Source of the DNA: a plasmid
Strand: one strand, 5' to 3'
DNA: 64,000 nt
NCBI RefSeq assembly: GCF_054482525.1
Contig: NZ_JBTHVG010000003.1
Within the stretch, counting starts at the first letter, position 1, and each line of letters begins with the position of its first letter. This document shows, piece after piece, positions 8,910 through 41,183 of this stretch. A program made the position numbers and the translations under genes. The notes below the pieces were generated by a model. That model made no database searches and was not told where the DNA came from. It saw only the letters and a list, made by a program, of their open reading frames with translations.

Positions 8910-9272
8910 TCAGGGGTTTAACGCCGGAATATTTTGCCAGGCCTCCTGCAAGGTCTGCAAGACTTCTACAAGTGATAGTGACGGCCACAGGACTGTTTCC
9001 GTCATTATCACTCCAGGTGGCTCGCACTCTACTGGTACCAGAATTAAAACAACACGAGTTCCTTTTACCTGGTAGGCAAGGTTTACTGCCGGTTGGCGGT
9101 AGGAGGCCAGTACACCCTCACCATATTGAGCAGGGTTACTTGCCCAGTTCCGCACCATTGCATACACCTGAGGCATATACCGACTATCCAGATCCCCTTT
9201 GGGCCGTCTGAACGGCACGATTTCTTCTGAGCGGTAGGTGGTCGTTGTTGTATTGGTTGTCATCTTTGTCAC
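8910..9272 (-). CDS. Hypothetical protein
   Basis: 120-aa ORF; first gene of the minus-strand block. Confidence 0.4.
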   Translation of the reverse strand: MTKMTTNTTTTTYRSEEIVPFRRPKGDLDSRYMPQVYAMVRNWASNPAQYGEGVLASYRQPAVNLAYQVKGTRVVLILVPVECEPPGVIMTETVLWPSLSLVEVLQTLQEAWQNIPALNP

Positions 9273-9328
9273 CTCCCCTGTTCGTCCATTTAGAGTTTTA
9301 AGCTGCTTTACACATCACACTCAACTGA

Positions 9329-9613
9329 TTATTTAAGCTGGTCATCGTCTCTGGCCAGCATAGCCCAACCATTCGACTGGTTTTCGCGGGAGTAAGGATT
9401 CATTTCAAAATAACTATCTACCGCGTCGCTGTCCGCAACAGAACTGTTGTTAGCTCTCTTTGAACCCTGAACCACTACAGCATCAACCTCTGCGGCTTTC
9501 CCGTTGCGCTGTACCAGGATTTTAACCGTCTTGGGCTTACGTCTTGCGAGCAGTTTGTTGGCGATAAAAAGCACAACAATCCAGGCCAAAAGCACGTATA
9601 AAAATTTATTCAT
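9329..9613 (-). CDS. Small membrane protein
   Basis: AGGAGG 5 nt upstream of ATG; one N-terminal transmembrane helix. Confidence 0.5.
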   Translation of the reverse strand: MNKFLYVLLAWIVVLFIANKLLARRKPKTVKILVQRNGKAAEVDAVVVQGSKRANNSSVADSDAVDSYFEMNPYSRENQSNGWAMLARDDDQLK

Positions 9614-9776
9614 AATGCCCTCCTTTGTATGTGATTATTATACCTGCTTCCATTGCAGGCCAAACAGGTTCGGTGTATGAAAAATAGACTTCTCTCCGGC
9701 GTATAGCAATCTACTTACTGATCTGTTTTCGTATCAAACTGTATGGCATAACCGAGGGGCGTACGTGGTGAGTCAG

Positions 9777-9787
9777 AAAGTTACTTT
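9777..9787. promoter_or_regulatory. Palindrome copy AAAGTTACTTT followed by TCCG
   Basis: Intergenic, about 165 nt upstream of the gene starting at 9613. Confidence 0.5.
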
Positions 9788-9969
9788 TCCGTAATAGTTA
9801 ATTTCAGATCCTTCTTCCAGTTACGCTTCAGTATAAAACCGATACCCTCTAATTCAGCATCCTTCACGTTTAATACGCTTCACTTTAAGGCAGGGCTTTT
9901 CGGTTGATATGAATTCTTTTTCCGGTTGCTGGACATGGGTTTCATCCTGATAGTTAAAATTGCAGGCTA

Positions 9970-10272
9970 TCAGTCACCACCACCACCTCCTCCTCCTCCT
10001 CCTCCACCGCCACCATCACAACCACCAGCTATGCTATTTTCACCATTACAATCACCTCCGAGGGGGTTCAAATGGCTGCTCCCCTGTAGATGGTGTCCTT
10101 GCCAGATCGAACCCGAACCAGCGCCTCCTGAGCGTCTTTGCTTGCCCTGAGGCAATTGTGCAGGCTCACCAGCACCGGCGGTCCCAAAAATGTCCCGGGC
10201 AATTTTATAAAGAAGGTAAAAAGGTACGCCCAGCATCATAAAAAAGATTCCTGAAAATATTACACGTTCCAT
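9970..10272 (-). CDS. Small membrane protein with C-terminal poly-glycine tail
   Basis: AGGAG 8 nt upstream of ATG; N-terminal helix; the last ~14 residues are Gly, encoded by the (CCN)n tract. Confidence 0.4.
   Translation of the reverse strand: MERVIFSGIFFMMLGVPFYLLYKIARDIFGTAGAGEPAQLPQGKQRRSGGAGSGSIWQGHHLQGSSHLNPLGGDCNGENSIAGGCDGGGGGGGGGGGGGD
9975..10028. repeat. Trinucleotide (CCN)n simple-sequence tract
   Basis: caccaccaccacctcctcctcctcctcctccaccgccaccatcac; encodes poly-Gly on the minus strand and poly-Pro on the plus strand. Confidence 0.8.
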
Positions 10273-10704
10273 TGATGATCTCCTGTCTTGTGAGAGACCA
10301 GTTATATCAGGGTGATTCAGTATTTCCGTTTAGAAAAGAGTACTAATTTGGCCCTGTTCGATCTTAATTTGCCATCCGGGAAAAAGTCATAGGGATAGGC
10401 CTGCCAGAGTCAATAACTTCCAGTGATCTGGAGGAGACCCCGGCTCTCTGAGCCCTCATGGATGGTACGGCTTTACCCCCTGTAAACAGATTCACGTTCC
10501 GCAGGACAAACATCGACTACTGACGTCTCATATTTGCTGACGCTAATCCGACGTCTCATTGCCGTCTGCTTGTTTTCTTTAAAGGGTGTATTAGACGAAT
10601 ATCAAATCGGAATGGTAGGGGATGTGTGGGCACCATGCCCGGCCCTCTTTGAGCATCTGAGAGATTGGAGACCTAGCCGGGTAAGATAGCTACTTTCTTA
10701 CGGG

Positions 10705-38829: not shown

Positions 38830-38939
38830 CAGCAAATTTTCAGAAAAAAAACACCGCCTTTTATTTAAGATTGAACACATCCTTTTTAAATACCAACAAT
38901 GATTATGAAACCACAATGTAAGTGAAGCGCCATTATGGA

Positions 38940-38950
38940 AAAGTAACTTT
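38940..38950. promoter_or_regulatory. Palindrome copy
   Basis: AAAAGTAACTTTT, about 170 nt upstream of the gene starting at 38769. Confidence 0.5.
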
Positions 38951-39176
38951 TGTGCAGCTCATAAATTTTATTTATTAGTTACGTTCCTTTGTCTTGTGGT
39001 CGAAGTTCATCAGGCGAGGCCTAAGAAGAATATGTGTGGTTTCAGCCAATGCGGTGATCGGGCATTATAATTTGGTCGGGCTATTATACGTGGGTAAAGG
39101 TAGTGGTAGGGAGAGGATCAGGTTAAATTGCATTTTCCCGGTTGCCTTCCCTGGCCTACCGGTTTCAGGTCAGACG

Positions 39177-40124
39177 CTAAGACCAGCGGTAATACTTAAA
39201 GTAGTCCTCATTTACAGCCAAAAACTCCCTTAAACCGTTCATTAATCCCTTTTCAAACGCTGTAACGATAAACCGGTATCCGTCCAGTGTTTCAATGTAG
39301 TAGATCCCGCCCGGTGTTATTCCAACATGCAACACCTCGGCTGTCATCATAAACTGGCCTTCCGGAAAATCATGCGACAGGTATATAAAACCCGTCGTGG
39401 CCGGTGCGGGTGTGGCATTCACTAAGACACCGTTAAACTGCTGCCCGTGCCTCGCCGGTACAAGCTCACTTCCCCTGGTTGACTTATCGAGCAGCCCCTT
39501 AACATCTTTTTGCTCTTTAGATGAGGTATAGCCCCGCACATCACTCCCATCACCTGGGCGAGAGCCGGTGCCGACATGTGCAAGACGACGGTAAGCGCTG
39601 CGCATATTGATGTGGCAGGATGCCCCGGCTCTACCCTGAAGCCTTACGCCAAAATCTTCGCAAAGTAATAAAATCTGACGTAGCTGGTGTTCATACACGG
39701 ACGCAGAAAGTGAAAGGTTGAAACTGGAAAAGGTCAGTTCTAAAACCTTTTCCCGTTTGTCATTGAAATGTGCTTCCAGCCTGATGATTGGCTTTTCCGA
39801 CATTGCAAAAGCTTTGTCCGTTGCTCTGTACCGGCATTCATCTCCGAAACATTCTTCAACAACGCTGGCTATAACCGTGTCGTGATCGCCATCTTCCGGA
39901 GCTGGCACAAAGATTTCAAATTGTGCCGGTGTCTCCGGCTCCAGCAGAACGGGATATAAACGCGGAGAATTAAGCAATGCGCATTCAGAATTAATGAGCT
40001 TAACCCAGGCGCTTTTGTCGTCCGGATCCTTAAGCTGCTGTCCAAGGTTATCGCAAAAGTCTACTATCTGACGGGTATGCTCATCCGTGACTGCACAGAT
40101 CAGGTTAAGACCATGCGTGGCCAT
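39177..40124 (-). CDS. Hypothetical protein (about 315 aa from ATG at 40124; the listed ORF extends to a TTG at 40220)
   Basis: Long ORF downstream of the HigB-like gene; start uncertain. Confidence 0.45.
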   Translation of the reverse strand: MATHGLNLICAVTDEHTRQIVDFCDNLGQQLKDPDDKSAWVKLINSECALLNSPRLYPVLLEPETPAQFEIFVPAPEDGDHDTVIASVVEECFGDECRYRATDKAFAMSEKPIIRLEAHFNDKREKVLELTFSSFNLSLSASVYEHQLRQILLLCEDFGVRLQGRAGASCHINMRSAYRRLAHVGTGSRPGDGSDVRGYTSSKEQKDVKGLLDKSTRGSELVPARHGQQFNGVLVNATPAPATTGFIYLSHDFPEGQFMMTAEVLHVGITPGGIYYIETLDGYRFIVTAFEKGLMNGLREFLAVNEDYFKYYRWS

Positions 40125-40366
40125 ACTCAATTCCCGGGTTCGGGACTGGGAATTGATCGACCAGGGGTTAAGTGAAAGCGAAATAGGGCTTATGGAAGGG
40201 ACGACCGTCTCATTCTGCAAATCTGTAAGCTGGCAGTTCGCAGTAGGCTTCGGGGAAAGGGTACTAAATATGTAACTTGCCTATTGTTTAGTACTGGCCT
40301 GGATATAAAACATCGCGTCCATGCTTGTATCCCGGGATGAAATTGAAAATAGCTTCATTTTTAACC

Positions 40367-40663
40367 TTAATGGATGAGCGATTTATAGTCATGTGCTGAC
40401 AAATGGACATTATGTGCGCCATCATTCCATTCAAAGAATAATCGATACTTAGAGTTTACTCGAATGGAGGAATAACGGTTTGACGTCATTCTTAAGCGTT
40501 CATAACGCAAGCTGTTGGATAATAACTCCCGCTCACTCTGGACATTATCCAGCGTTTCGAGTCGACACAGAATCGCGTTAATAATTTCAGAAGGAATACC
40601 TGCCGTTGTTTTTCCATTACGGAAGAACTTTTCAAGCCGTCTGTCTTTAAATGAATGGATCAT
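40367..40663 (-). CDS. HigB-like toxin (RelE/ParE superfamily, plasmid-killer type)
   Basis: MIHSFKDRRLEKFF...GIPSE...SIRVNSKYRLFFEWNDGAHNVHLSAHDYKSLIH follows the HigB pattern MIKSFKHKGLKLLF...SITVRANWRITFQF..GDAYILNYEDYH. Confidence 0.6.
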   Translation of the reverse strand: MIHSFKDRRLEKFFRNGKTTAGIPSEIINAILCRLETLDNVQSERELLSNSLRYERLRMTSNRYSSIRVNSKYRLFFEWNDGAHNVHLSAHDYKSLIH

Positions 40664-40712
40664 AGTTCCTCCGTAATAATTGACCTTAAAATTAAATTAA
40701 AAGGGCTTTGAA

Positions 40713-41183
40713 TTAATGAATCCCTAAAATGCGGGCGGCGACTGCCAGCTGCTTATCACTTAACTGACGCTGGTGGGTTAAAGAAGACTTAAGGCTTTCC
40801 AGAAAATTATTACTGCTGGATTGCTGGGTGATTGCATCAACCATTTTTTGATGAGATCTGCACCATGCATTGAACGCAGAGTTGTGGGCGTTTTCAGTCC
40901 TCAAACGCTCGTTTTGCAAGGATGCTGACACTTTGCGGGCAGCTTGAGCATTAATGCGGTACAGCGCATTCAGCGTGTAAGCAGTGCGGGTCGTTTCGAG
41001 GCTGTAACCCGTGGCTTTACAAGCCATACAGCGACTTCTATAAAAATGCTTACGCTCTCCCCGACCATTGCATTTATCGCAAAGAATACGAAAAGTATAT
41101 TCCGCAGTACCTTTTACAGAATCAACACAGCGGATTTTTGCGCTGGAGATTTCAATTCCACTGCGATCATAATATTTGGTCAT
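40713..41183 (-). CDS. Zinc-ribbon hypothetical protein
   Basis: CDKCNGRG and CMACKATG Cys pairs; GGAGGAA upstream of ATG; 156 aa. Confidence 0.45.
   Translation of the reverse strand: MTKYYDRSGIEISSAKIRCVDSVKGTAEYTFRILCDKCNGRGERKHFYRSRCMACKATGYSLETTRTAYTLNALYRINAQAARKVSASLQNERLRTENAHNSAFNAWCRSHQKMVDAITQQSSSNNFLESLKSSLTHQRQLSDKQLAVAARILGIH

Follow-up and report, generated by a model that had tools for sequence, protein, structure and literature searches.

In Salmonella, E. coli, Enterobacter and Klebsiella, the spread of mcr-1, extended-spectrum beta-lactamase (ESBL) genes and many further resistance genes is mediated by plasmids of the IncHI groups. Here we describe a block of mostly small genes at positions 8910-41183, minus strand, of a 64,000-nucleotide stretch of plasmid DNA (contig NZ_JBTHVG010000003.1 of assembly GCF_054482525.1; the whole stretch is called the window below), and compare it with two kinds of gene array known from other conjugative elements. 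One is the leading region, usually defined as the side of oriT that lies away from the relaxase gene, the relaxase gene entering the recipient last. In MOBF and MOBP plasmids the leading-region genes are oriented towards oriT, include many small orphans and long non-coding spacers, and encode orphan methyltransferases, ParB-like proteins, hok-type toxins and members of the PAPS-reductase family, which is among the families enriched there (Samuel et al. 2024, PMC11541004). The other is found in the IncA/C plasmids and the SXT/R391 elements, which combine MOBH and MPF_F with a MobI gene adjoining oriT and have long one-strand arrays in which small orphans are interspersed with methyltransferase orphans and a ParB-like gene. 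In IncA/C the array downstream of traN opens with the hde operon (vcrx089-093), in which vcrx089-090 counter type I restriction and ssb-bet-exo repair CRISPR cuts; vcrx089-090 were complemented from the recipient and not from the donor (Roy et al. 2020, PMC7498323). The block shares with the MOBF and MOBP leading regions the gene content and orientation just listed for them, and with the IncA/C and SXT/R391 elements the MOBH/MPF_F setting and the kind of array, the hde genes excepted. We tentatively read it as an establishment and host-interaction regulon.

Based on megablast searches, the window is IncHI2 plasmid backbone: its part from 8.9 to 50 kb has 100% identical matches in hundreds of plasmids of 180-400 kb from Salmonella, E. 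coli, Enterobacter and Klebsiella, typed as IncHI2A, MOBH and MPF_F. The gene annotation was taken from NZ_CP082955.1, where the record position minus 71011 gives the window position, a relation valid as far as roughly 50 kb. Thousands of plasmid records contain the sequence, and the literature that we searched describes neither the function of the block nor its promoter family and palindrome network. With 47 annotated coding sequences, the block occupies the IncHI backbone between the H operon of Tra1 and the Ig-like/RepHI2 region. Forty-one of its 45 genes that do not belong to insertion sequences (IS) lie on the minus strand, the other four forming a plus-strand cluster at 15837-18139, and its two IS elements are found one on each strand (IS421 on the plus, IS150 on the minus). 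A two-sided binomial test of the strand bias gives p = 9e-9, a value that exaggerates the significance because the genes of an operon are not independent. The genes are short (median of 106 amino acids (aa), 31 of the 45 with 150 aa or less), the coding fraction is 0.72 and 19 spacers measure at least 200 nt. About 30 of the genes belong to no named family in Pfam, NCBIfam or PHROGs, and 12 of the 45 proteins are acidic. These figures bear out a first-pass annotation, made from the sequence alone, which had described a same-strand block of about 45 small genes interrupted by a single four-gene cluster and two IS elements. The components named there, namely a ParB-like protein, hok, an HNH nuclease, a PP-loop protein, two methyltransferases and a HigB-like toxin, were each recovered by hidden Markov model (HMM) searches, and the two small proteins singled out as acidic indeed have isoelectric points (pI) of 4.4 and 4.6, with 18-19% of Asp plus Glu.

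Two short motifs recur in the block. One of them is a predicted promoter, in which an A/T-rich stretch leads into CTCAGGTTATTAGCC and a -10 hexamer, mostly with TGn in front of it, follows after 16-17 nt; its GGTTATTAGCC box, located 16-17 nt upstream of the hexamer, stands in the place of a normal -35 element. Of the six strong copies, five are on the minus strand (12673, 26019, 33721, 38826 and 41246) and one is on the plus strand (44509); about three weaker ones were also found. Every one of them, strong or weak, is correctly oriented and has a gene downstream, and the box promoters are kept at orthologous sites in IncHI1/R27. The copy at 12641-12673 (minus strand) combines the GGTTATTAGCC box, 16 nt and TATAAT, and has its orthologous site in IncHI1/R27. 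Also on the minus strand, the copy at 25987-26019 lies upstream of the DUF957-DUF3085 pair within a 19-nt inverted repeat and has its orthologous site in R27, that at 33688-33721 lies upstream of the module for the 263-aa, 149-aa and DndC-like proteins, that at 38794-38826 upstream of gene 38392-38769, and that at 41214-41246 upstream of the zinc-ribbon/HigB unit, at the distal end of the block. A weaker box with TGT-TATAAT is found at 23683-23715 (minus strand), and the plus-strand copy at 44509 serves the neighbouring plus-strand cluster. When up to three mismatches are allowed the motif is only about twice as frequent as expected by chance, so that the weight rests on the strong promoter sites. 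Canonical sigma-70 promoters are rarer than after shuffling of the sequence, and there is a modest excess of terminator-like hairpins. The box motif thus appears to define a family of extended -10 promoters that is concentrated in the block. Since its units are separately promoted and have a regulatory box in common, the block is not one operon; as far as sequence motifs tell, it comprises ten or more successive transcription units on the same strand, of which many are under one promoter family.

The block is conserved to much the same degree as the transfer genes next to it. Collinear genes in IncHI1 were found for 29 of the 45 genes, a count that uses two IncHI1 plasmids, the first of them with a fra-locus replacement, and the median identity is 62% at the amino acid level; between IncHI2 and IncHI1 the neighbouring DNA transfer and replication (Dtr) proteins are 62-83% identical (MobH 62%, NERD 63%, TraD 83%). 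Among the segments specific to IncHI2 are the one at 34.9-38.8 kb, with the two methyltransferase genes, and the greater part of the plus-strand cluster. At a coverage of at least 80%, the block is present in 918 of the 1175 matching plasmid records. It belongs to the core backbone, with a few variable cassettes in it, and is not a fast-turnover island. A similar one-strand array, more than 30 kb long and with DUF6012, DUF957 and the ParB-like gene, occurs in a Klebsiella MOBH/MPF_F plasmid. This related plasmid (NZ_CP034040.1) carries at the end of its one-strand array an apparent type IV CRISPR-Cas locus (a Cas6-like protein and a DinG-type helicase) and then umuDC.

Orthologues of block genes are also found in the IncA/C arrays. 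When all block proteins were compared with the IncA locus by tblastn, DUF3085 (42%) and the DndC-like protein (46%) were the sole matches, and the array that follows traN and begins with the hde operon holds these two with their order and orientation preserved. IncC has a second array, situated between repA and parAB, with orthologues of the 416-aa methyltransferase (50%) and of the ParB-like protein (32%). Unlike the hde operon, the block has no counterpart of vcrx089 (an AAA ATPase), vcrx090, ssb, bet or exo, based on tblastn, PHROGs and NCBIfam searches. The IncA/C arrays also differ from those of IncHI in that they lie in other places, apparently in another orientation to oriT, and, in the loci examined, lack both the promoter box and the palindrome described below; they are regulated by AcaCD, whereas the regulators in IncHI are TrhR/TrhY/HtdA.

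The published R27 microarray data connect the block with the transfer genes. R27 genes were mapped by gene order, with corA (R0096), hok (R0101) and the last H-operon gene (R0115) as anchors. The orthologues of block genes are 2-17 fold up in an htdA mutant at 25 C, not at 37 C, and the H operon is 5-11 fold up in the same mutant. R0092 and R0093, by gene order the orthologues of the two adjacent members (23878-24342) of a small-protein family with three copies in the block, are 12-14 fold up.

We suggest, as a reading that falls somewhat short of an even chance, that the block is an establishment and host-interaction regulon. In settled cells it would be kept low by the global circuit of the plasmid, HtdA versus TrhR/TrhY, with H-NS, and in transfer-competent donors it would be switched on alongside the transfer genes. 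In a fresh recipient, which holds no repressor, the block would be switched on by zygotic induction, and its products would there modify or shield the plasmid DNA and aid its settling. The predicted products include proteins that could modify or handle DNA (two orphan methyltransferases, the DndC-like module, the HNH nuclease and a ParB/KorB-like protein), two toxins and about 30 orphan small proteins. An establishment and anti-defence role is plausible by analogy and by co-regulation, and the block holds no recognisable anti-defence protein. If such a role is true, the block would be a target for blocking plasmid spread, and anti-defence or establishment genes of MOBH plasmids would need no canonical leading position.

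Several observations weigh against this reading. In the Pfam, NCBIfam and PHROGs searches no block protein matched the Ard, Klc, Psi, Ssb, Acr, Ocr or other anti-restriction or SOS-inhibitor families, and among the annotated features at positions 1-167000 of the NZ_CP082955.1 record no product name refers to anti-restriction, anti-CRISPR, SOS inhibition or ssb. Models of two proteins are confident and have no solved relative: that of the 263-aa protein has an AlphaFold2 (AF2) pLDDT of 96.8, and that of DUF3085, built from a 7-sequence alignment, has a pLDDT of 91.3 and a best PDB match at E 0.58; no deposited structure of a DNA mimic was therefore matched. The derepression in the htdA mutant spans 139 of the 181 expressed R27 genes and, being plasmid-wide, ties the block to the transfer regulon but does not single it out. 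In wild-type R27 several block orthologues are silent or slightly higher at 37 C, the non-permissive temperature. Finally, the block is conserved like core genes, unlike the quick turnover usual for anti-defence islands. The first-pass annotation had likened the block to establishment or anti-restriction islands while recognising no ssb, psiB or ardA, and had proposed profile and fold searches for Ard, anti-CRISPR and DNA-mimic families as a check. Gene content, IncA/C orthology and co-derepression with the tra genes speak for its idea; the absence of ssb, psiB and ardA was reproduced, the profile searches returned no Ard or anti-CRISPR family, the two models matched no solved fold, and neither hairpins suited to single-stranded DNA nor a place on the leading side was found.

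The position of the block relative to oriT bears directly on that last point. As the MobI gene directly adjoins oriT in R27 and SXT, the IncHI2 oriT was placed in a 758-nt spacer at window positions -2277 to -1520, between mobI (= traH) and trhR. On its far side, 5' of the window, follow the divergent trhR-trhY and trhF-H-G, that is, trhR, trhY and the F operon. On the near side the plus strand carries mobI, an open reading frame (ORF) of 738 nt and then the H operon of Tra1 (1-8623, plus strand), with the MobH relaxase (TraI), the coupling protein TraD/TraG, two ORFs, one of them DUF4400 (TraJ), the S49 peptidase and NERD; the block follows from 8910, about 11 kb from the oriT spacer. It thus lies on the same side of oriT as the relaxase, downstream of the relaxase operon, which is the lagging side by the usual definition, and the likeness to a leading region proposed in the first-pass annotation finds no support under that definition.

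The label could be rescued if the relaxase operon entered first. In that case the block would form part of the first 45 kb transferred, the incoming plus strand would serve as template for its minus-strand genes, which could be expressed early, and their orientation towards oriT, as in the leading regions of F-type plasmids, would fit the template rule. If the relaxase enters last, the transferred strand would be the coding strand of the block genes and not their template. We found no experimental determination of transfer polarity for IncHI in the literature that we searched. For SXT and IncA/C, which are related elements, nic and polarity have been reported as undefined; according to a 2026 preprint, MOBH systems lack experimental leading-region data; and the MOBH prototype relaxase requires its inverted repeat 3' of nic. 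The start of the block, at a distance of only about 11 kb from the oriT spacer, also agrees with a leading region. The content also resembles that of known leading regions, with orphan methyltransferases, toxin genes of toxin-antitoxin type and a ParB-like gene in one orientation. Nevertheless, under the usual rule that the last genes to enter are those for the relaxase and its accessory proteins, the block falls at the lagging end, and 11 kb of plus-strand Dtr genes separate it from oriT. Unlike the MOBF and MOBP leading regions, it has no match to ssb, psiB, psiA, ardA or klcA, and its promoters look like double-strand promoters of the extended -10 type. Folding of the spacers of at least 200 nt with DNA parameters, on both strands, revealed no long hairpins of the Frpo or ssi type in this purely structural test; the inverted-repeat arms in the spacers do not exceed 23 nt, and Rfam at gathering thresholds returned no family over the whole window. 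Promoters active in single-stranded DNA were rejected, as the spacer folding and the inverted-repeat search gave short hairpins and terminators only. Moreover, mobI of IncC is presumably located directly ahead of repA, where the record begins, and the homologous array next to it seems to be oriented away from oriT; if so, the orientation to oriT varies among MOBH relatives. On present evidence the block does not represent a leading region of the classical type, with expression from single-stranded DNA, and entry of the relaxase operon first, with the block as a true leading region, seems distinctly unlikely.

Another account is that the block is ordinary mixed backbone, an assortment of toxins, a regulator, modification enzymes and phage or integrative and conjugative element (ICE) remnants with no role in entry or evasion, whose common orientation stems from modular inheritance, read-through or the direction of replication. 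Conservation at the level of core genes and the lack of anti-defence homology agree with it, and long one-strand arrays are common to the related large MOBH plasmids, where their places and orientations differ. In R27 several orthologues are constitutive (the ParB-like R0104, R0113 and the DUF3085 gene R0089) and others are not expressed. A leftward fork from RepHI2 (53735-54823), which lies 12.5 kb to the right of the block, would be co-directional with the block genes, but would run head-on into the plus-strand cluster at 44569-50049, the H operon and the minus-strand genes to the right of RepHI2. Replication co-orientation was accordingly judged insufficient as the cause of the strand bias, as it fits the block and not the neighbouring genes. 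The promoter box common to IncHI1 and IncHI2 argues for a single regulon and against a mere assortment. Two further points speak against ordinary backbone: some block genes have orthologues in an IncA/C array with proven evasion genes, and the block is derepressed together with the tra genes. We consider ordinary backbone a rather unlikely explanation.

The same enzymes might instead form a plasmid-borne defence island directed against phages or rival plasmids. PADLOC reported matches to DndC (4e-38), BrxP (5e-6) and a type II methyltransferase (1e-46) and a weak one to a PtuB-type HNH protein; toxin genes are present, and the related Klebsiella plasmid has an apparent type IV CRISPR-Cas by its array. 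However, neither a full Dnd set (DndA-E with or without DndFGH) nor a BREX type 4 set was found: the DndC/BrxP-like PP-loop domain stands alone in the block, which lacks DndA, B, D and E, DndFGH, PtuA and any further BREX gene. No restriction endonuclease lies by either methyltransferase, 7 kb separate the HNH gene from the nearer of the two, and the DndC-like protein scores only 117.6 bits against the NCBIfam DndC model (TIGR03183), under the family cut-off of 290.4 bits. The defence-island reading was rejected because the block contains no complete system, and we regard it as highly improbable.

The second recurrent motif is a palindrome, AAAGTWACTTT, mostly found as AAAAGTWACTTTT, with 14 copies in the window against 0.03 expected. 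Its eight copies in the block sit 90-220 nt upstream of the starts of minus-strand genes: one at 9777-9787 (164 nt upstream of gene 9329-9613), a pair of AAAAGTWACTTTT copies in front of the ParB-like gene (14826-14836 and 14952-14962), the nearer of which lies 12 nt upstream of the promoter box of this gene, and single copies at 24741-24751 (141 nt upstream of gene 24397-24600), 26948-26958 (152 nt, gene 26476-26796), 29679-29689 (133 nt, gene 29307-29546), 34728-34738 (207 nt, gene 34195-34521) and 38940-38950 (171 nt, gene 38392-38769). The other copies in the window start at 3145, 4875, 47929, 50153, 58544 and 58609. The backbone to the left of the window has six copies, two of them in the oriT spacer, the following 49 kb, with the Tra2, par and rep regions, has 12, and the 50-kb resistance region has none. 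Over the IncHI backbone the density is about one per 2-4 kb; two copies lie inside traG, and copies also adjoin the replication genes. In IncHI1/R27, homologous positions carry a pair in oriT, another within traG and a third upstream of the ParB-like gene, and the Klebsiella MOBH/MPF_F plasmid has 20 palindromes in 40 kb, with 5-6 clustered upstream of its ParB-like gene. A literature search for the sequence of the palindrome returned no relevant paper. The first-pass annotation had taken two recurrent motifs as shared features of the block; both are real, and the palindrome is plasmid-wide and not specific to the block.

The ParB-like gene (13551-14735, minus strand) encodes a predicted ParB-family DNA-binding protein of 394 aa with matches to PHROG 1033 (7.5e-21), TIGR00180, HTH_ParB and ParB helix-turn-helix (HTH) chains in PDB. 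It contains a ParB N-domain, the HTH and an acidic linker, with an RQGxCRxR box at residues 96-103, is 65% identical in IncHI1 and 35% in the Klebsiella MOBH plasmid, and is indexed in about 17,000 blocks of a public contig collection. The palindrome is a candidate operator or parS-like site for this protein. The KorB/OB operators of the IncP-1 plasmids offer the nearest parallel, with a ParB-family global regulator that acts on 12 palindromic sites. As in that system, a plasmid-encoded ParB-family HTH protein occurs with a 13-bp palindrome dispersed over the whole backbone (oriT, rep and tra), and in three plasmid lineages the IncHI palindromes cluster upstream of the gene for the ParB-like protein itself. 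Unlike the KorB sites, the IncHI palindrome is far more frequent, many of its sites are intragenic, no KorA-like partner was identified, and for partition the IncHI plasmids possess systems of their own, Par1 and Par2. IncHI1, IncHI2 and the IncHI-like Klebsiella plasmids could have a KorB-like global network in which the ParB-family protein acts on the 13-bp AAAAGTWACTTTT. In combination with the box promoters, such a network would keep the block silent as a regulon until zygotic induction sets it off in a naive cell that the plasmid has entered, and the block would serve establishment or anti-defence with no need of first entry or of single-strand promoters, a proposal that we hold to be speculative and, on balance, unlikely. 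The promoter family and the palindrome are starting points for the control of about one third of the IncHI backbone.

Across RepHI2, at 130-138 kb of the record, the gene for another ParB-like paralogue, with 32% identity to the protein of the block, adjoins those for a DUF4942 protein and a Dam methyltransferase. In R27, the R0151-R0157 cluster on the trhR side includes a 'partition protein' (R0153) and a 'cytosine methylase' (R0154), is induced at 25 C and is 11-16 fold up in the htdA mutant. These clusters indicate that content like that of leading regions extends outside the block.

The remaining genes of the block, all on the minus strand unless stated, are as follows. The three-gene module (29796-33645) comprises a 263-aa acidic protein (32854-33645), encoded first, a 149-aa protein (32353-32802) and a 794-aa DndC/PAPS-reductase-like PP-loop protein (29796-32180; DndC models 4e-38, TIGR03183 6e-34). 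The first 300 residues of the last match DndC and PRK06850 PP-loop models, and its C-terminal extension of 430 residues has no Pfam match. This N-terminal PP-loop is like that of Dnd DndC and of the E. coli YbdN/IbrA-type PAPS-reductase-like proteins; unlike in Dnd, the partners are the 263-aa and 149-aa proteins, which have no known fold, and not DndA, B, D or E. The order of the module is kept in a relative with a 32%-identical 263-aa homologue, where an Mrr_N-type methyltransferase lies upstream. The 263-aa family has 138 representatives at 50% clustering and no Pfam match, and its profile found no match in PDB and Pfam.

The orphan N6/N4 DNA methyltransferase (35364-36614, 416 aa; PF01555, PADLOC MTase_II 1e-46) has an Mrr_N-like N-terminus and no nuclease partner; orthologues of about 50% identity occur in IncC, Klebsiella and Pseudomonas megaplasmids, and none was found in the IncHI1 regions compared. 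A second methyltransferase-like protein of 202 aa is encoded at 36783-37391 (PHROG 15480, 1.2e-32), and the HNH endonuclease of 177 aa at 28154-28687 (PHROG 2118, 7.6e-55; its PtuB-like matches are weak). The DUF957 and DUF3085 genes form a pair (25153-25960) 4 nt apart, with DUF957 (25649-25960, 103 aa, pI 4.4), one of the two acidic proteins flagged earlier, followed by DUF3085 (25153-25644, 163 aa, pI 4.8); the other flagged protein (33872-34129, 85 aa, pI 4.6) has an IncHI1 orthologue with 49% identity. The small-protein family with three copies has two adjacent members of 66 and 74 aa (23878-24342) and a third at 29307-29546, and homologue searches found it only in IncHI-type plasmids. 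Likewise, searches with DUF957, a 79-aa paralogue family and DUF3085 returned close IncHI relatives only, with no match in a scan of viral contigs and two in one scan of genome contigs. Among the first 25 listed proteins (8910-26796), the ParB HTH was the sole match when all PDB chains were searched by sequence.

The hok-family type I toxin gene (19908-20027; NCBIfam NF007279, 82.3 bits against a cut-off of 73; PF01848) has no sok/hok RNA family near it in the Rfam search of the window. It is hemmed in by the IS150 (IS3 family) transposase (20165-21534, minus strand), inserted 137 nt upstream, and by the IS421 (IS4 family) transposase gene (18601-19713, plus strand), 194 nt downstream; hok in IncHI1 has neither insertion, and its regulation in IncHI2 may thus be disrupted. 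At the distal end of the block, the HigB/RelE-family toxin and a zinc-ribbon protein form a unit (40367-41183; PF05015, PHROG 3066 at 5.6e-17), in which the 98-aa HigB-like toxin (40367-40663) is preceded by the 156-aa zinc-ribbon protein. Neither neighbour of HigB, that is, the zinc-ribbon protein or a 315-aa protein, matches an antitoxin family in PHROGs and NCBIfam, and no antitoxin of the HigA type was recognised. In other IncHI2 and IncHI1 plasmids a 393-aa ORF comes right after HigB; here a TAG codon in the N-terminal extension (40125-40358) leads to its annotation as a 315-aa gene ('flavin reductase', a doubtful name).

The plus-strand cluster (15837-18139) encodes DUF5417 and three small ORFs, and three of its four genes are absent from the IncHI1 regions compared. 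An IncHI2-specific ORF of 100 aa at 9970-10272 has a hydrophobic N-terminus and a C-terminal run of 13 glycines, and the G-rich repeat under this run could be prone to slippage. The call of 'Brucella suis mprF, 100% identity' that PLSDB/RGI gives for the 93-aa orphan at 22688-22969 looks spurious. To the right of the block, three paralogues of about 800 aa with Ig-like domains (Big_3/DUF4165) surround RepHI2 (41618-44008, 47629-50049 and 55931-58387), and copies of the palindrome lie inside or beside two of the three genes. An IS91-family transposase gene (51024-52223) is part of about 1.7 kb that is extra with respect to NZ_CP082955.1, between an Ig-like gene and repHI2, and an IS2 and an IS1 remnant lie further to the right (58837-60110 and 60265-60768).

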